A DNA stretch of 64,000 nt, from the NCBI GenBank assembly GCA_963810935.1, contig CAWEPK010000008.1, forward strand, positions 736,001-800,000. The letters run 5' to 3'. This document shows, in pieces, positions 1 through 41,141 of this stretch (position 1 is the first letter of the stretch; every line of letters starts with the position of its first letter). The notes under the pieces were generated by a model that worked only from the letters and a program-made list of their open reading frames with translations, had not been told where the DNA came from and did no database searches. The position numbers and the translations under genes were made by a program. Source of the stretch: an uncultured delta proteobacterium. Lineage in GTDB: Bacteria; Desulfobacterota; Syntrophorhabdia; Syntrophorhabdales; WCHB1-27.

Positions 1-486
1 TACCGGCTTAAAGTGGGCGGCCTGGTTGAACGGCCCATAAGCCTGTCTCTCGCAGAGATCAGGCAGCTCCCGAGTCGCACCCAGACAACTCGGCACGATT
101 GTGTCGAAGGATGGAGCGCCATAGGCAAATGGAAGGGCGCGCGCCTGGGCGCATTGCTCGAAAAAGCGCATCTGAAGCCCAATGCCCGTTACGTGGTTTT
201 CTACTGTGCGGACCCGATGGAAGAAGACGGCAGCTCTTTCTATTACGAGAGCATAGACCTTGAAGATGCTTTCCACCCGCAGACGATACTCGCATACGAC
301 CTTAACGACAAGCCGTTGCCCGTTGAAAACGGGGCGCCCCTGCGCTTGCGATTGGAGCGGCAGCTCGGCTACAAAATGGCCAAGTACGTCATGGCCGTTG
401 AATGCGTGGAAGACCTTTCCCGCATAGCCGGGGGTAAGGGCGGCTATTGGGAAGACCAGGGATATGACTGGTACGCCGGCATATAG
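1..486 (+). CDS. Molybdopterin-dependent oxidoreductase, sulfite oxidase/MsrP(YedY)-like; 5' partial
   Basis: Motifs HDCVEGWS and NGAPLRLRLERQLGYKMAK, C-terminal GGYWED; frame is open from base 1. Confidence 0.85.
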   Translation, partial: YRLKVGGLVERPISLSLAEIRQLPSRTQTTRHDCVEGWSAIGKWKGARLGALLEKAHLKPNARYVVFYCADPMEEDGSSFYYESIDLEDAFHPQTILAYDLNDKPLPVENGAPLRLRLERQLGYKMAKYVMAVECVEDLSRIAGGKGGYWEDQGYDWYAGI

Positions 487-31780: not shown

Positions 31781-32251
31781 ATGATGATTTCCCTGAAGGT
31801 TAACGGTAAGGTTTACCAGGTCGATGTCCCGCCTGACACGCCTCTTCTATGGGTGCTGAGGGACAATCTGAAGCTTATGGGCACGAAGTACGGCTGCGGC
31901 ATAGGCGAATGCGGCTCGTGTACCGTCCACGTGGACGGCAAGGCGGTCCGCTCCTGCACTGTTTCGGCCGGCGACATGGGACGCAAGTCGATCACGACGA
32001 TCGAGGGCCTCCCGGAAAGCCATCCCGTAAAACGCGCCTGGGTCACGGAGCAGGTCCCGCAGTGCGGTTACTGCCAGCCGGGAGTCATGATGCAGGTAGC
32101 GGCCCTCATTGCCGAAACCAAAACACCCGATCCTGAGAAGGTCATTGCAGCAATGGACGACGTTCTCTGCCGCTGCGGGAGTTACCCGGCCATGAAGCGG
32201 GGCATTAGGTCGGCCGTCGCGATAGCCAGGAAGGAGGGGCGAAAATCATGA
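31781..32251 (+). CDS. IorA-like [2Fe-2S] subunit of a xanthine dehydrogenase-family oxidoreductase
   Basis: GTKYGCGIGECGSC, QCGYCQPG, LCRCG. Confidence 0.92.
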   Translation: MMISLKVNGKVYQVDVPPDTPLLWVLRDNLKLMGTKYGCGIGECGSCTVHVDGKAVRSCTVSAGDMGRKSITTIEGLPESHPVKRAWVTEQVPQCGYCQPGVMMQVAALIAETKTPDPEKVIAAMDDVLCRCGSYPAMKRGIRSAVAIARKEGRKS

Positions 32252-34441
32252 AATCATCCATATCCCGCCGTGATTTCTTGAAAGGGTTTCTGGGCGCCGC
32301 CGGATTGACCATCGCTGCCTCCGTGACACCCTTCGGTTATAAGATCCTCAACGCCTCGGACGCAGGAGCGGCGTTCAAGCCGAACGTCTTCTATCAGATA
32401 ACGCCCGACAACACGGTCAAGGTGTATATACCGAACTCCGAGATGGGCCAGGGTGTCAGGACGGCCTTCGCCATGATCGTCGCCGAAGAGCTCGACGCGG
32501 ACTGGGGTCAGGTCAGGGCGGTGCAGGCGCCGAACGCCGACGGGTATAAGAGCCCGATCCTCGGCGCCCAGATAACGGTCGCGAGCGCCAGCGTAAGGGG
32601 TTTCTACGAGCCGCTCCGGAAGGCAGGCGCCGCGGGCCGAATGATGCTGATAAAAGCGGCCGCAGAGACATGGAAGGTGCCGGAAGACCAGTGCGTAGCC
32701 GCACTCGGCAGGGTGAAGAACAAGAAAACGGGGCGCACCCTCACGTACGGCCAACTCTGCGCCAAGGCCTCCGGGCTGGCCGTCCCGAAGGATGTGGTCT
32801 TAAAGAAGGAAGGCGAATTCAGGTATATCGGCAAGCCGATGGCCCGTCTGGACATCCCCGAAAAAGTCAGCGGCAAGGCGGTCTTCGCCTCCGATATCGT
32901 CCTCAAGGACATGCAGTACACCGTCCTCGCGCGGCCGCCGGCCTACGGGGCAAAGCTCGTTTCATTCGAGGGCGCGGCTGCCGAAAAGGTCAAAGGGGTG
33001 CAGAAGATCGTACAGGTCCCGAGGGGCGTGGCCGTCTGCGCGGATTCGGTCGCTGCGGCCCTCAAAGGCCGTGATGCCCTGAAGGTGACGTGGGACAAGG
33101 GGGCCGTGCCCGACATGGACACAGCCTACGTCGAAAAATCCTTGAACGCGGACCTCGAAAAGCCTGGTATCAAGGTGGTCGATCAGGGCAACGTCAAGCA
33201 GGCCCTGACAGACGCGCCGAAGAAAATGAGCGCGGAATATTATGTCCCCTGCGTCGCCCACATTACGATGGAGCCGATGAGCTGCGCGGCATACGTGCAG
33301 GCGGACAAGTGCGAGCTGTGGGCGCCGACGCAGACCCAGACCGTTTCCATGGTGGTCGCCTCTAAGGTGTCCGGTTTGCCGATGAACAAGATCGAGGTCA
33401 ATACGCCCTTGCTCGGATGCGGTTTCGGAAGGCGGGCACAGCAGGACTATACAGCCGAAGCCGTTTCGGTGTCAAAGGCCGTCGGTAAACCGGTCCAGGT
33501 ATTCTGGACGAGGGAGGACGATATCAAGTACGACGGCTTCCGGGGAGCGGCCGCGCACAGGGTGGAGGCGGCCGTAGATACCCAGGGGAAGCTGGTTGCC
33601 TGGTCGCACAAGCTCGCCGCCACTTCTATTTTGCGGGACCTCAACCCGGGCGCGATAAAGAACGGCATCGATTATTACTGCCTGTGGGGCCTTGCGGACG
33701 CCCCCAACTCCCCTACGTGGAACTGCAATTTCCAGTACGAGACGCCGGGCCTGTATATCGAGCTGCTTGCTCTCCTCGCTGCCCGTGACGTGCCTGCCCT
33801 GGAGGTCGGTGCAGAACGGCCCCAACGCCTTCGTCATCGAGTCCTTCATCGACGAGCTTGCCCGCGCGGCCGGCAAAGACCCGCTGGAGTTCCGCCTGCT
33901 CAACCTGAAAAACAACATGCGGGCGAGCCGCGTGCTGAAGGTTGCGGCTGAGAAAGCGGGCTGGGGCAAGCCCCTTTCGAACGGCCATGCCCTGGGCATC
34001 GCCCAGCACGCCTGCTTCGGGACTTACGTGGCCCAGGTGGCCGATATCTCCGTAGACAAGGCCGGCGGAAAGATAAAGGTGCACAAAGTCGTTGCGGCCG
34101 TCGATTGCGGCCCTGTGGTCAACCCCGGTCCGCTGGTCGACCAGATACAGGGCGCCATCATAATGTCGCTGAGCGCCGCGCTCAAGGAAGAGGTGAAGTT
34201 TGCAAAAGGCGGCGTCGCCTCGTCGAACTTCGATAACTACCCCATAATGCGTATGAGCGAGGCGCCCGAGATAGACGTGCATATCGTAAAGAGCACGGAG
34301 AAGATCGGCGGCATCGGTGAGGTCGGCGTTCCCGCTGCGGCGCCGGCCGTGGCGAACGCGCTGTTCGCGGCCACCGGCGTCCGCATGAGGCGGCTGCCGA
34401 TGACTCCCGCGAATGTGCTCAGTGCGTCGAAAAAGGCTTGA
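32248..34441 (+). pseudogene. IorB-like molybdopterin-binding subunit, Tat signal; frameshifted near 33770 (possibly a sequencing error)
   Basis: SRRDFLK, EMGQG, GCGFGRR in the first ORF; WRSV..NAF, DCG, GGIGEVG in the overlapping second ORF. Confidence 0.85.
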
Positions 34442-35102: not shown

Positions 35103-35187
35103 CCTGTTCCCGCCGCAAGGGCCTATCAGACATCTTTCTGTTGACATGGACGCGCGCGTGGTATAAACAATATTAACAGTACATCAA

Positions 35188-35370
35188 TGGGCGTAGGATG
35201 GCTCATTTGAGCCGAGAAGGGAAGCCGGTGTGATTCCGGCACGGACCCGCCGCTGTGAATGGGGACGAAACCCGGACGTATTGCCACTGGGCCGTATGCA
35301 TTAGACGAAACGGCCCGGGAAGGCGCGGGGATTAGGACGATCCATTAGTCAGAAGACCTGCCGCTGCCCA
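35188..35370 (+). ncRNA. Cobalamin riboswitch
   Basis: AGGGAAGCCGGTGTGATTCCGGCACGGACCCGCCGCTGT...GCCACTGG...GGGAAGG...AGTCAGAAGACCTGCC (B12 box); TTGACA at 35141. Confidence 0.95.
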
Positions 35371-35393
35371 CGGTAAAACTTGGAGAGAAGGTA

Positions 35394-35432
35394 AATCCCC
35401 AGGCTGACAATGTCGGTCCGGGGATTTTTTTT
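35394..35432 (+). terminator. Riboswitch-associated intrinsic terminator
   Basis: ATCCCC...GGGGAT stem followed by a T run, upstream of the first start codon. Confidence 0.7.
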
Positions 35433-35460
35433 ATTGCCCCGCCGGCGAAAGGAGTAGGAA

Positions 35461-35757
35461 GTGGCTAACGAGATTTCAATAAAGATCACGCCCGAGAACT
35501 GCCGGGGCTGCCGGCGCTGTCAGCTCGCCTGTTCCTCCTACGACCCGGGCCCGCTCAACCCGCGCCTCGCGGGGATCCAGATCCTGAGGCTCGATGACGA
35601 AAGCGGGGAATGGCCGGTCGTCAACATGGAGTGCCTGGAGCGGTTCTGCGGAAAGTCGAATGCGCAAATCGGCGCAGAAAGCAAGCCCGCGTGCGTGGCA
35701 GCCTGCCTGTTCGGCGCGCTGGAAATGGAAAAGGAATTACCCAATGAAGAAGAGTAA
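35461..35757 (+). CDS. 4Fe-4S ferredoxin-like AOR partner
   Basis: CRGCRRCQLAC and CVAACLFGA; GTG start with AGGAG RBS. Confidence 0.8.
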   Translation: MANEISIKITPENCRGCRRCQLACSSYDPGPLNPRLAGIQILRLDDESGEWPVVNMECLERFCGKSNAQIGAESKPACVAACLFGALEMEKELPNEEE

Positions 35758-37624
35758 GAAGTGGTACGGATGGAGCGGCACTATCCTGGAGGTCGATCTT
35801 ACCGGCGAATCGGTCCGGAAGGCTGAGCTTTCCGAGGAGCTGGCTTACAATTACCTGGGACAGGCGGGGATCAACGCGCGCATATTGCACGACCGCATCC
35901 GTCCGGATATGGACCCTCTGGCCCCGGAGGCGCCGCTGATCTTCGGCGTCGGCCCCCTGGGCGGCACGCTCGCCCCATGCTCCGGAAGGCTTTCCGTAAC
36001 GTTCAAGTCGCCCCTCACCGGCATATTCGGCGACTCCAACTGCGGGGGCCACTGGGCCTCCGAGCTGAAGATGGCCGGATACGACCATATCGTCATCACC
36101 GGAAAGGCAAAGCACCCCGTATATCTGTGGATCGACAATGATAAAGTGCAGGTGCGCGACGCGCGGTCCATCTGGGGAATGAGCACATGGGAGACGGACG
36201 AGGCGGTCCGGGACGACGTTGGCGAAAGGACCGCCCAGGTGGCGTGCATAGGACCGGCGGGCGAAAACCTCGTGCGGTTCGCCGCGATCATATGCAACCG
36301 GGCAAGGGCTGCGGCGCGATGCGGTCCGGGTGCTGTCATGGGATCGAAGAACCTCAAAGCGATAGCCGTGCGGGGTGACCGGGGCATAAACGTGGCCGAC
36401 AAGCCGGCCCTGCGCGATGCAGTGGACGAAGCAGTAAGCGCCATCCTGGCCGATCCGCTTTATCAGTCGGCCAGCTTGTATGGGACACTTGCCATCACGC
36501 CGCTGGCGCAGGCCCTTGGGTTCCTGCCCACCCGCAACTTTCAGGAATCGACTTTCGAGGGCGCGGACGGGCTGTCTGGAGAGGTCTTCATAAAACAGTT
36601 CGCCACCCGGCACAAGGGGTGTTACAACTGCCCCGTCGCGTGCAGCAGGTTGTACAAAGTCGGCGAAGGGCAGTACGCGACTGCGGGCGAAGGCCCGGAA
36701 TACGAGACGGTATCCGCCTTAGGCTCAAAGTGCGGCAACGGCGATTTCGAGTCGATCCTTCATGCCAATACGCTCTGCAACCAGTTGGGGATGGATACCA
36801 TCTCGACGGGAAACGTCCTCGCCTGGACAATGGAGTGTTATGAAAAAGACATACTGAGCAAAGAAGACCTCGACGGCCTCGACTTGCGCTTCGGCAACGC
36901 GGAGGCGATGGTCGAGATGATCAAGAAGATCGCGGCGAGAGACGGCCTGGGCGATGTGCTCGCCGAAGGCGCGTACAGGGCCGCGCAGCAGCTCGGCGGC
37001 GACGCATTCGTGGTGCACGGCAAGGGCATGGACTATCCTGCCGTCGATACGAGGGGGACGAAAGGCATGGCCCTCTCCTTCTCCGTCTCGCCCAGGGGCG
37101 GGGACCATCTGAAAGGTCTCTCCCTCTATGAAGTGGCGCCCGACGTCTACGCAGGGGACATCAGGAAGGAGACGGGCATAACCGTCACGCCGCAGTACTG
37201 GCTACAATACGAGACCAAGGCGGAATTGATGCGCTGGCATGAAAACTGGCACTGCGTAGTCGATTCACTCGGCCTATGCAAGCTGGAAGGAATCGCTCTC
37301 AAGCCGCTTTTGCCTAGACACTTTCAGCGTCTGCTCTCGGCTGCGACCGGATGGGGCCCATCGGTTGCGGACCTTGAGACGATCGGGGAAAGGATCTGGA
37401 ACCTGGAGCGCCTGTTCAATATAAGGGAAGGTATGGGCAGGCAGGACGACCTGCCGCCCCGCCGCCTGCTGGAAGAGCCCATCGCGACGGGGCCTGCAGA
37501 GGGGGAGCGGCTTGACCGGGGCCGGTACGAGCGGATGCTCACCGACTATTACCGGCTGCGCGGATGGGACCCGGAGACAGGCGTGCCGACCGGAGAAAAA
37601 CAACGCGAGCTGGGATTGGCCTGA
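35744..37624 (+). CDS. Aldehyde:ferredoxin oxidoreductase family (W-pterin) protein
   Basis: KSPLTG..DSNCGG, IGPAGEN, MGSKNLKAI, CYNCPVAC, GPEYE, DSLGLC, DYYRLRGWD. Confidence 0.95.
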   Translation: MKKSKKWYGWSGTILEVDLTGESVRKAELSEELAYNYLGQAGINARILHDRIRPDMDPLAPEAPLIFGVGPLGGTLAPCSGRLSVTFKSPLTGIFGDSNCGGHWASELKMAGYDHIVITGKAKHPVYLWIDNDKVQVRDARSIWGMSTWETDEAVRDDVGERTAQVACIGPAGENLVRFAAIICNRARAAARCGPGAVMGSKNLKAIAVRGDRGINVADKPALRDAVDEAVSAILADPLYQSASLYGTLAITPLAQALGFLPTRNFQESTFEGADGLSGEVFIKQFATRHKGCYNCPVACSRLYKVGEGQYATAGEGPEYETVSALGSKCGNGDFESILHANTLCNQLGMDTISTGNVLAWTMECYEKDILSKEDLDGLDLRFGNAEAMVEMIKKIAARDGLGDVLAEGAYRAAQQLGGDAFVVHGKGMDYPAVDTRGTKGMALSFSVSPRGGDHLKGLSLYEVAPDVYAGDIRKETGITVTPQYWLQYETKAELMRWHENWHCVVDSLGLCKLEGIALKPLLPRHFQRLLSAATGWGPSVADLETIGERIWNLERLFNIREGMGRQDDLPPRRLLEEPIATGPAEGERLDRGRYERMLTDYYRLRGWDPETGVPTGEKQRELGLA

Positions 37625-37630
37625 AGTGTA

Positions 37631-38086
37631 CTATCCGTACCGCGTCCTGAAGAACTGGTAGAAAAAGGCGACGGTAAGTCCGAACAGCATGTGGTTAAGG
37701 AGCCCGGCAACAAAGGCGGCCGGCCCGAGGAGCTTCGTCATATAAAAGCCCGGAGCGGTGACGACACCCGTTCGCAGACCTGCGTGGACTAAAGGCAAAG
37801 CGCCCATAAAAATGCCCAGGATCAGCCACTGGATCACGCTGAAGAGGAGGCCGAAGCGGTAACCGGGCCATCCGACGCCGGCCGACCAGAGGGCCGCGTA
37901 AATAAACGTAAACCCGACGCCCCAGACGAAGAGAAGAGTAAAGCCGAGGGGTTTGTTTTCTCTCCTCGTGAACATGGTGCTCAGATAGCGCTCCATGCCC
38001 ATCAGGTTCATCGTCGTGAGCCGCGTAGTTACGAATAAGACTCCTGTTGCCGCTAGACCCGCTATGAGAGCGCCCGGTATGCTCAT
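37631..38086 (-). CDS. Hypothetical membrane protein
   Basis: Four hydrophobic segments; conserved-looking NHMLFG. Confidence 0.65.
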   Translation of the reverse strand: MSIPGALIAGLAATGVLFVTTRLTTMNLMGMERYLSTMFTRRENKPLGFTLLFVWGVGFTFIYAALWSAGVGWPGYRFGLLFSVIQWLILGIFMGALPLVHAGLRTGVVTAPGFYMTKLLGPAAFVAGLLNHMLFGLTVAFFYQFFRTRYG

Positions 38087-38701: not shown

Positions 38702-41141
38702 TCACATCTTCAGTGCTTCGGCTTTCAGAGAGACGCGCAGCGCATTTCCCGTCACCGTGATACTGCTCGCGAACATCGCAAATACAGCCAGGAGAGGATT
38801 GAGAAACCCCGACGCGGCTGCCGGAACGGCAATTGCGTTATAGAAAAAGGCAAACAGCAGGTTCTGCCGCATGGAGCGGGCTGCGATGACGGAGAGCCTG
38901 TAGGCGTCGAGAAATAGAGCGGGGTCGGACGTCGTGAAGCTGAGATCGCACGCCTCGCTCGACAAACCAACAGCGGCACTGACGCCACATCCCACGTCTG
39001 CTGCCGCGAGGGCGGCTGCATCGTTGATGCCGTCCCCGACCATTGCGACCTTGCGGCCGTCAGCCTGTAAGGCGCGGATGATCCCGACCTTATCCGCCGG
39101 AAGGGCCTCGCCCTTGAAGCTGCTTATTTCCAGTAAGCAAGCCACGGACCGCGTGGTTTCCATGGAATCGCCTGAGACAAGGTATACATCCATGCCCCTT
39201 GCCCGAAGCGCAGCCACCAGCTCGCGGCTGCGCTGCTTCAGGGTGTCGCCGAGTACGAGGAAGCCCCGCACTGCCCCATCCCACGCAAAAAACGCGACGG
39301 TCTTTCCTTCCGACTGCCGCAATCCGGCTTCGCGGGCAAACCGGTCGCCTAGCGCCATGGACGAGCATTCCATGAAAGCACGGCTGCCGATATAAATGTC
39401 CAGGCCGCTTGCGCGCCCCTTTACGCCCAAACCGTCGAACGCCTCGAATGCCCCGGCAGGCTCTATTTCTGCACCGATGCGCCTCGCCTCGCGGACTATC
39501 TCGCCTGCTATAAAGTGGTTCGAACGGACTTCGATAGAGGCAAGCCTGGCCAGCAACTCCGGCCGTTCGATCTTCTCGTCACAGACTATCGCTTCGAGGG
39601 CATACCTGCCTTCCGTGAGCGTCCCCGTTTTGTCGAAGACTACCGTATCGATCTCTTTCATCTTTTCGAGCGCCTCGGCTGTGCGTATGATAATGCCTTT
39701 TTTCCGGGCGGCGCCCATCACTGCCGCCTTGACCAGCGGAACGGCGATGCCGAGGGCACAGGGGCAGGCGATGAGGAGCACGGCAAGGGACCGCAAAAAA
39801 ACCTGCTGGGCCGCAATGCCCGTCCACAACGCAAAGAATCCCGTACCTGCGGCAATCGCAATGACGACGGGCACAAAGGCCCGGCTTGTCCGGTCGGCAA
39901 GCAGCTCGTACTTCCCTCTCCGGCCGAGGGCCTCCTCGACAGTCTCCACCATCCTGCCTATGACGCTTTCCCGGCTAGTCCTTAAAGCCTCAAGAATAAC
40001 GCCCTCCCCGCCTGCAACGACGCTGCCGCCCGGCGCCTCATCCCCGGTGTTTAAGGCGCGCGCCTTGGATTCACCCGTAAGGAAGGAGACGTCGAAGAGG
40101 CCGCTACCTTTCACGATCCTGCTATCGACGGGCAGGCCGTCGCCCGGTGCAGCGACGAATCTATCGCCCGGCCGTAATGCATCAGCCTTTACCCAGTGTT
40201 CCCTACCCGCATCGGTTATCCTGACCTTCCCGTCGAGGACGCGGTAAAGCTCCGTAATGCCCGATGTGCTCCGCTGCCGCGCCCGCATCTCGATATACCG
40301 CCCCAAAAGGACGAAAGCTGACGAGCATCGACGACGTATCGAAATAGAGATAGTAAGTCTCCATGCCTACCTGGACCGTACTGTAAACGTACGATGAGAG
40401 TGCGCCGATTGAGACGAGGGTGTCCATGGAAGGAAGGCCGCAAAAAAGGGAAACGGCCCCTCTGCGCAGGATGGGGAGACCTCCGTAAAAAAGAACGACG
40501 GAGGCCATGACCAGCAGAGGATAGGAGAAATAACGGATATCGGCAACATGCAGTTTCAGAAAAAAACCCGAATAAAGGGCAAAGGAGACCATCATAATAT
40601 TTGCCGTAAGGATGGCCGAGACGCCGAGCCTCAAAAGCAGCGAACCGGCATCGCGCCCTGCCGCATCATAGCCGTAGCCCGCCGCCAGGTGATAGCCTAA
40701 TCTTTCAGCCCTTGCCTCGATGGCCTTTGGCGATATTCTGTGGGGCAGGTATTTTACGCGGAGCGTATCGGTAGCGAACGAGACGTCTACGTAAGTGACG
40801 CCTTTGCTTCTTGCGAGCACCTCACGGATGAGCCAGGCGCACGATGGGCACCACATACCGGAGACGTGGTAAGTGAGATCGAGGGGCGCCGGCTCAGTTT
40901 GATATTGAGACAGCGCGCCGGCCCCGCCGCCGTTCGATGCGGGTATGATCGCCCACTCCACGCACGCGCGGTAAAGCTCCGTCTCCCGGAAACCCTCGGG
41001 AGGCACGCCATTGGCCGCAGAAAGGATAAGGAAGACCTGCCGGCATCCGTGGCAGCAAAAATGTAACTCCCGGCCGTCCCGGTGCTCCTCTATTTCGGAA
41101 GTTGCCGTCTCCTGACCGCAAAGGTCGCAAGGTTGCGGCAA
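38702..41141 (-). pseudogene. CcoI/FixI-like P1B heavy-metal ATPase; frameshifted near 40315 (possibly a sequencing error)
   Basis: N-terminal CDLC/FCCHGC and GMWCPSC; C-terminal ORF has LTGES, ACPCALG, DKTGTLT, GDGINDA. Confidence 0.85.

Follow-up and report, generated by a model that had tools for sequence, protein, structure and literature searches.

A cobalamin riboswitch is linked to a clade of aldehyde:ferredoxin oxidoreductases in anaerobic bacteria

B12-element control of B12-independent isozymes such as metE and nrdAB was reportedly described by Rodionov and colleagues in 2003. For delta-proteobacteria, cbi, btu and nrdDG are given as B12-element targets, with nrdDG under such elements also in species that have NrdJ (Rodionov et al. 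2004, PMC545781), and four functional classes have been given for the cobalamin regulon, namely synthesis genes, genes that import B12, genes that import cobalt, and genes for isozymes of B12-dependent enzymes (Sun et al. 2013, PMC3766115). In the accessible parts of these two papers, aldehyde:ferredoxin oxidoreductase (AOR) is not among the cobalamin-regulated genes, and the latter has an aorA operon only under the molybdenum cofactor (Moco) motif. Here, we describe a cobalamin riboswitch that precedes a gene pair for a small Fe-S protein and an AOR in a 64,000-nucleotide stretch of DNA (referred to as the window) from an uncultured delta proteobacterium (assembly GCA_963810935.1, contig CAWEPK010000008.1, positions 736,001 to 800,000). 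Our data confirm that the link between riboswitch and AOR is real and extends over a whole AOR clade; as far as we have searched, it is unreported. What is new here is their strictly conserved combination, the riboswitch and the enzyme family being standard in themselves.

Several described systems resemble this locus in part. As in metE, nrdAB and nrdDG units, a stand-alone riboswitch, presumably an OFF switch, and an enzyme gene lie outside cob clusters; unlike metE and nrdDG, the AOR has no known cobamide-dependent counterpart, and searches for MtaB, EutB and PduC did not bring one to light. In the fdx-aorA-moaD operon of Clostridium scindens, an Fe-S gene and an AOR gene similarly lie behind a cofactor riboswitch (PMC3766115, Table S1). 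However, in that operon the ligand, the molybdenum or tungsten cofactor (Moco/Tuco), is the pterin of the enzyme itself, whereas the predicted ligand in the window is a cobamide, which is no known cofactor of AOR. With the AOR of Pyrococcus furiosus (1AOR) and AorABC of Aromatoleum aromaticum, the gene pair shares full-length similarity of the catalytic protein, conserved cluster and active-site residues and a small protein related to AorA. However, the AOR of the window is no more than moderately identical to characterised AORs, it shares 30-48% identity with the other AORs compared, and the clade stands on its own long stem. Moreover, unlike AorABC, the locus encodes an Fe-S subunit with two rather than four cluster motifs, and no gene for an AorC-like flavoprotein is present. 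Finally, the sulfate reducer Desulfofundulus kuznetsovii has two methanol routes, one with a cobalt-dependent methyltransferase and one with an alcohol dehydrogenase and AOR (PMC5770442), and, as we consider for the window, an AOR is there part of a cobalt/B12-independent alternative to a corrinoid pathway. That AOR (Desku_2951) adjoins the alcohol dehydrogenase gene and is abundant with and without cobalt (PMC5770442); it is described as constitutive, and the accessible parts of PMC5770442 and PMC12093947 mention no riboswitch. By contrast, MtaB was found in 0/18 of the genomes that carry the riboswitch-AOR cassette (hereafter, hosts), and the cassette itself has no dehydrogenase gene.

The evidence for the link comes from its conservation. 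In a genome scan with one genome per species, 19 of 36 AOR loci were orthologous to the AOR of the window at 63-84% identity. Two of these (L014 and L027) are cut at a contig end and stand outside the count; in the 17 loci that have upstream DNA, a cobalamin riboswitch is invariably present upstream on the same strand (17/17), at a distance of 300-750 nt from the AOR match. Of 29 orthologous metagenome loci (62-85% identity), the 20 whose upstream DNA measures about 570 nt or more were scanned, and all 20 have the riboswitch. The resulting 37 riboswitch-bearing loci represent fewer than 37 independent cases, owing to near-copies (L089 and L090 of L007, L100 of L017, and L103 and L104 of L022). 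No riboswitch was found at the 12 scanned distant AOR loci of the genome scan (33-45% identity). Likewise, a sample of 400 genomes from the host's phylum gave no orthologue, its best AOR match being 48% identical, and the 20 best AOR loci of this sample have no riboswitch within 1.5-kb flanks. The link is also specific within a genome: the one from which the window comes has about eight AOR-family loci and five cobalamin riboswitches, and only the AOR of the window has a switch.

In a FastTree phylogeny of 105 AORs used for clade placement, all 28 riboswitch-linked rows fall into one clade with an SH-like support of 100 and a stem of 0.42. This clade also holds L086, a locus with just 360 nt of upstream DNA, and two Bacillota rows are nested inside it. 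Because the riboswitch is kept in all checkable members of the clade and is absent from the distant AORs scanned, it seems to have entered the clade in a single event and to have been retained there ever since. By record name, the hosts belong to Syntrophorhabdales, Syntrophaceae, Desulfomonilaceae, Desulfatitalea, Desulfovermiculus and Desulfonatronospira and, further, to Peptococcaceae, Desulfallas and one "Bacteroidales" bin; they include the cultured strains Desulfatitalea alkaliphila M08but and Desulfallas sp. Bu1-1.

A preliminary description of the window, made from its letters alone, had called a B12-controlled AOR atypical. This is borne out in that the literature searched yielded no paper that connects an AOR to a cobalamin riboswitch, though an early mention in the 2003-2004 B12-element papers is possible. 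The same description had named orthologues lacking the riboswitch as grounds for rejecting its reading; the riboswitch is kept in all 17 genome loci with upstream DNA and in all 20 metagenome loci scanned. The riboswitch could in principle be a relic that came to lie before an unrelated gene when DNA was deleted or rearranged, in which case the link would be meaningless. The lack of cob, cbi and btu genes around the cassette in the window fits such an origin; yet the riboswitch is kept in 37/37 loci with upstream DNA across two phyla, the terminators are intact in 18/18 leaders and the riboswitch is confined to one AOR clade. We therefore regard a relic as extremely unlikely.

Table 1. Features of the riboswitch-AOR cassette in the window.
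Feature	Position	Strand	Basis
Promoter-like site: TTGACA, 15-nt spacer, TATAAA	35141..35167	+	inferred from sequence
Cobalamin riboswitch aptamer, RF00174	35178..35379	+	Rfam covariance model
Linker hairpin, candidate antiterminator (CUUGGAGA, 9-nt loop, UCCCCAGG)	35379..35403	+	fold and covariation
Intrinsic terminator, hairpin and run of eight U	35393..35432	+	fold and conservation
Small Fe-S subunit gene, 98 aa, "mini-AorA"	35461..35757	+	open reading frame and profile relatives
Aldehyde:ferredoxin oxidoreductase, AOR sensu stricto type, 626 aa	35744..37624	+	AFOR_N, AFOR_C

The features of the cassette are listed in Table 1. The aptamer covers the full RF00174 model (positions 1-189) with 100.4 bits and an E-value of 6e-24 against a gathering score of 31.5, and it is the sole Rfam match in the whole 64 kb window; in particular, the Rfam scan of the window found no Moco RNA motif. 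The leaders of the orthologous AORs score 86.7-137.5 bits with the same model, and in an alignment of 18 leaders the B12 box (GCCACUG region) and the core columns of the aptamer are invariant or nearly so. The riboswitch of the window has a long peripheral extension, which we take to be typical of the adenosylcobalamin-sensing class. Fourteen bases past the aptamer end, and wholly 3' of it, a hairpin begins (35393-35427; dG -21.1 kcal/mol, RNAfold) that is followed by eight T ending at 35432. We read it as an intrinsic terminator because of its fold and its conservation: an equivalent hairpin with a T-rich stretch is present in 18/18 leaders (dG -20 to -31.5 kcal/mol), and the L011 leader has a compensatory change in both arms. 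A simple consensus scanner missed the terminator, probably owing to an internal mismatch in the stem. A consensus scanner also did not flag the promoter-like site, in which TTGACA (35141-35146) and TATAAA (35162-35167) can be read from the sequence. This site is a plausible promoter of the cassette with a spacer of only 15 nt, and similar hexamers are found upstream of several orthologous leaders in the alignment. Thus, of the order promoter, riboswitch, terminator and two genes given in the preliminary description, riboswitch, terminator and genes are confirmed at their positions and the promoter is plausible only. The description's statement that the unit has no cob, cbi or btu gene also holds for its surroundings, with none found among the 23 open reading frames (ORFs) between 25869 and 46892 in a domain scan.

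In which direction does the switch act? The linker hairpin shares the 5' arm of the terminator and forms once the 3' arm is excluded from the fold. Its 7 pairs have 93% of cells paired, 6/7 pairs change on both sides and its score was reached by 0/500 shuffles. The 5' arm of the terminator has an alternative partner in the aptamer, UGGGGA, with 6 pairs, 95% paired and 3 pairs changed on both sides. The linker segment and the aptamer UGGGGA are both candidates for the antiterminator; by contrast, an aptamer GGGGAUU segment was rejected for this function because it is not conserved in orthologues. The AOR leader is 81% identical overall to the leader of cbpB-cbiM-cbiN-cbiQ in the same genome, and linker and terminator are the same in both. 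Leaders of orthologous AORs in other genomes are 81-85% identical to the leader of the window, i.e. they are as close to it as the cbpB-cbiMNQ leader. The cobT leaders of Desulfovermiculus and Desulfatitalea follow the same general design, with a purine-rich linker (GGNAAA) leading into a C-rich terminator arm, at an overall identity of only 65-69% to the AOR leader of the same genome. Cobalt-transport and cobT-type genes are textbook B12-repressed targets. Because the AOR leader has its platform in common with cbpB-cbiMNQ and its design in common with cobT, i.e. with two kinds of B12-repressed genes, and because the terminator lies wholly 3' of the aptamer, the AOR leader is in all likelihood an OFF switch.

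The converse would be an ON switch, in which the linker hairpin, acting as P13/L13, is stabilised by cobamide and blocks termination, so that AOR would be made together with cobamide-dependent aldehyde-forming enzymes. The covariation of this hairpin, its exclusion of the terminator, its conserved 9-nt loop and the lack of overlap with the P1 stem are all compatible with such a function. However, cbpB-cbiMNQ and cobT would then likewise be B12-induced, contrary to all that is known of such genes. The complementarity between the linker loop and L5, read from the alignment, is 2-3 bases and inconsistently kept across leaders. Moreover, searches of the hosts brought up no B12 enzyme that forms aldehydes (EutB 0/18, PduC 0/18). 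For these reasons, an ON switch seems very unlikely.

The riboswitch most similar to the AOR leader belongs to the locus C7:98214-102997 of the same genome (L043 10214-14997). The genes behind it encode CbpB, a radical SAM/SPASM "cobopeptide" maturase (TIGR04163, E 1e-197), as well as CbiM, CbiN and CbiQ and a 206-aa protein that belongs to no family. A 57%-identical CbpB in host G403 is also riboswitch-controlled.

The two genes of the cassette overlap by 14 nt. The first starts with GTG and has AAAGGAG six bases upstream; the AOR starts with ATG at 35744. The AOR has the domains AFOR_N (E 3e-81) and AFOR_C (E 2e-139). The closest solved structure is that of the P. furiosus AOR (1aor, E 2e-140), and the match to the catalytic subunit of Aromatoleum aromaticum AorABC (8C0Z) has an E-value of 7e-121. 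The CxxCxxxC, distal Cys, EGPEYE and GGxH motifs align with those of 1aor; presumably the four Cys are the [4Fe-4S] ligands, and Glu and His lie near the metal. As judged from this alignment, the catalytic and cluster residues are intact.

For the small protein, Pfam gives only sub-threshold 4Fe-4S matches. A profile built from 17 orthologues, in which eight Cys are invariant, has AorA of Aromatoleum (8c0z_C, 5.6e-13) as its best solved relative, followed by the small subunit of an Acetomicrobium complex (9mqx_E, 1e-9) and by BamC (4z3w_E, 3e-7) and WOR5-S (6x6u_B, 4e-7). The cluster motifs at the N- and C-termini align with AorA and the two middle motifs are missing. The AorA, WOR5-S and BamC subunits are polyferredoxins with four [4Fe-4S] binding motifs, whereas the small protein, with its eight invariant Cys only, probably holds two clusters. 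The small gene lies directly upstream of the AOR gene in 17/17 orthologous loci, with an identity of 48-72% over the main match in 16/17 and a frameshift in L023. Because of this co-conservation, the homology and the 14-nt gene overlap, we read the small protein as a shortened electron-transfer subunit of the AorA/WOR5-S type, not a free ferredoxin. Of the "ferredoxin and AOR" pair in the preliminary description, the AOR part stands and the ferredoxin gives way, by its profile relatives, to a truncated subunit of this type.

One lineage departs from the intact reading frame. In the Desulfonatronospira-type locus L022, codon 244 of the AOR, which is Leu in the other orthologues, reads TGA in frame. 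The TGA is identical in L022, a genome bin, and in the metagenome contigs L103 and L104; the gene could be a pseudogene, or the TGA could be read through or recoded. Among the hosts, MetE was matched only once, in the same genome as L022 (G416), and this match also holds one TGA.

The surroundings of the cassette are variable. The flanks were scanned with Pfam for 113 ORFs of the 17 genome loci and for 51 ORFs of 11 metagenome loci; the latter are 51 of 63 listed ORFs, with L089 and L090 (near-copies of L007 and L088) and two short ORFs left out. In these 28 orthologous loci, no neighbour was found to be conserved and neither cob nor cbi genes adjoin the cassette; a clustering of orthologues with cbi genes, for which the preliminary description had proposed to look, was thus not observed. 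The gene 3' of the AOR is usually on the other strand, as in the window (37631-38086), and in the two Bacillota loci a MoaD/ThiS-like protein follows the AOR. Transposases lie near L099, toxin-antitoxin or restriction genes near L016, L021 and L091, and in the L007 and L088 lineage hemA and hemC stand in convergent orientation beside the cassette. Because the neighbours vary and the distribution is patchy, we infer that the cassette is a self-contained unit that may move horizontally. At L087, the AOR riboswitch has a second, divergent cobalamin riboswitch at a distance of 250 nt (1-112, minus strand; truncated where the contig ends); the pair resembles a back-to-back pair at C7:97536-98009 in the genome of the window. 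Elsewhere in the window, two genes are apparently split by frameshifts, one for the large subunit of a molybdopterin-binding dehydrogenase (32248-33951 and 33692-34441) and one for a heavy-metal P-type ATPase (38702-40306 and 40203-41141, minus strand). A TonB receptor gene, cobQ and one AOR paralogue are split elsewhere in the same genome, and such splits may be assembly errors in a bin that is 93% complete and 7% contaminated.

Based on these data, we suggest a model in which the cassette is a self-contained, OFF-switched unit that is inherited as such and has a cobamide-sparing role; we hold this explanation as a whole tentatively, at close to an even chance. In the model, the cassette would comprise a promoter, a riboswitch of the adenosylcobalamin type with its intrinsic terminator, and two translationally coupled genes for a two-cluster Fe-S subunit and a predicted tungstopterin-type AOR. 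With ample cobamide, the ligand-bound aptamer would permit the terminator to form, and transcription would not reach the genes. Under cobamide shortage, an alternative pairing would take up the 5' arm of the terminator and AOR would be made. The cassette would move as a unit, consistent with one AOR clade that is patchily distributed over Thermodesulfobacteriota and Bacillota among variable neighbours. The enzyme would provide a cobamide-independent and cobamide-sparing redox route, by the same logic as riboswitch-controlled metE or nrdDG. Its substrate would be an aldehyde to be oxidised, or an acid to be reduced, which either builds up or is in demand once a cobamide-dependent pathway stalls. 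One concrete candidate would be the semialdehyde step in a B12-independent shunt around acyl-CoA mutases.

The hosts provide a setting for such a role. The methylmalonyl-CoA-mutase family and the corrinoid Fe-S protein were each found in 16/18 hosts, and so was CbiG, the marker of the anaerobic corrin pathway, in a count confined to the hosts; MetE was found in 1/18. The hosts are thus heavily cobamide-dependent and probably cobamide producers. Neither the mutase family nor the corrinoid Fe-S protein is known to be functionally equivalent to an AOR. That the AOR serves as a B12-independent bypass, sparing cobamide, is a possibility that we favour over a role in supply, because the stand-alone unit matches the architecture of metE and nrdDG, because the cassette is rare and presumably mobile, and because of the long stem of the clade. 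As in metE- and nrdDG-type isozymes, the unit has its own riboswitch and, in the 28 loci, no cob/cbi neighbour. The long stem suggests a specialised substrate or partner.

Several observations weigh against this model. The direction of the switch rests on analogy with other leaders, and a linker hairpin acting as a ligand-stabilised P13 could make it an ON switch. In the 18 hosts, no enzyme was identified that depends on cobamide and could be replaced by an AOR. A methanol bypass as in D. kuznetsovii was rejected: MtaB was found in 0/18 hosts with a positive control in Methanosarcina, and the D. kuznetsovii AOR is itself not cobalt-regulated. A link to ethanolamine ammonia-lyase found no support either, with EutB in 0/18 hosts and a positive control in E. 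coli. The diol dehydratase PduC was also found in 0/18 hosts, a weak blank in that the control genomes were silent too. The corrinoid Fe-S protein is hardly more frequent in hosts (16/18) than in the phylum sample (263/401), and co-occurrence with the Wood-Ljungdahl pathway is, by these same numbers, non-discriminating. Finally, the content of the regulon favours a supply-side role. Five host genomes were examined and contain 29 cobalamin riboswitches, of which five are those of the AOR cassettes; 19 of the 24 others precede genes for cobamide synthesis, cobalt or B12 uptake or CbpB (cobT, cobU, cobC, cobD/cbiP, cbiK, cobN, cbiM, btuC-like, TonB-system and cbpB).

A supply-side role would mean that AOR and its Fe-S subunit serve the production or activation of cobamide, either by oxidising an aldehyde and passing its very low-potential electrons to the reduction of cobalt or corrinoid ahead of adenosylation or to Fe-S/radical-SAM steps, or by removing the acetaldehyde released by CbiG. 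Electron supply and acetaldehyde removal, like the bypass of a B12-dependent step, had been put forward in the preliminary description. In addition to the regulon, the AOR leader being a close paralogue (81% identity) of the cbpB-cbiMNQ leader speaks for such a role; CbiG in 16/18 hosts would allow acetaldehyde removal as well as electron supply, and with MetE in 1/18 hosts raising the supply would be the main option. However, in the 28 loci with scanned flanks the cassette is neither inside nor next to a cob/cbi cluster. The cassette is also rare: most of the 400 sampled phylum genomes, none with an orthologue, presumably make cobamide without it. It does not co-occur with CbpB, which was found in 4/18 hosts, and no link between cassette and CbpB is seen. 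Moreover, the acetaldehyde from corrin synthesis should be stoichiometrically negligible, the host has about seven other AORs, and a supply role leaves the origin of the aldehyde substrate unexplained. On balance, we regard a supply-side role as rather unlikely, somewhat more so than a bypass.

One special form of it would make AOR and the two-cluster subunit a dedicated low-potential electron source for the reduction of corrinoid Co(II) to Co(I) before adenosylation. To our knowledge, a Co(II)-to-Co(I) corrinoid reductase has never been identified for the anaerobic pathway. The paralogy of the leader with those of cobalt uptake, CbiG in 16/18 hosts and the very negative aldehyde/acid couple make this form compatible with our data, the acid/aldehyde couple being among the most negative in metabolism. 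If true, the adenosylcobamide-sensing switch would close a feedback loop in which low coenzyme calls for more reductant. We nevertheless consider it improbable. That the AOR does something other than bypass or supply is doubtful as well, to about the degree of the supply-side role in general.

Of the five remaining riboswitches of the 24, one is the acsC leader, two precede a NifH/CfbC-like gene and two precede ORFs that have no Pfam match. The acsC leader, in the genome of the window (C16:126944-127121, locus L001/L042; 117.8 bits), lies directly upstream of acsC (NF003195, E 4e-191), which encodes the gamma subunit of acetyl-CoA synthase, i.e. the corrinoid Fe-S protein, with the methyltransferase gene acsE also behind the riboswitch. 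Here, the target is itself cobamide-dependent, and the leader has no terminator and a ribosome-binding site close by. The arrangement recurs in 3/14 other cassette hosts checked, which are the closest relatives (L167, L169 and L170). In host G405, three tandem cobalamin riboswitch matches (118.8, 35 and 119.8 bits) lie within 1.2 kb on contig C23 (37532-38736; L179, L182 and L201), and the last is followed by a gene for a NifH/CfbC-like ATPase (NF033200, E 2e-94, below cut-off).

A clade of tungsten-type redox enzymes is thus tied to a B12 switch in every checkable locus, in two phyla, and it does not obviously fit any of the usual regulon classes. This suggests that, in anaerobic bacteria, a lack of B12 is connected with the redox metabolism of aldehydes and acids in a way that has not been described before. 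The connection would represent either a new B12-independent route in sulfate reducers and syntrophs or a new accessory step in anaerobic cobamide supply, and both outcomes are directly testable because at least two cultured strains bear the cassette. More generally, AOR paralogues, whose individual roles are mostly unknown, may be distinguishable by their regulators. In peat, wetland soil, soda lakes and hot habitats, the sulfate reducers and syntrophs in question drive the turnover of carbon.

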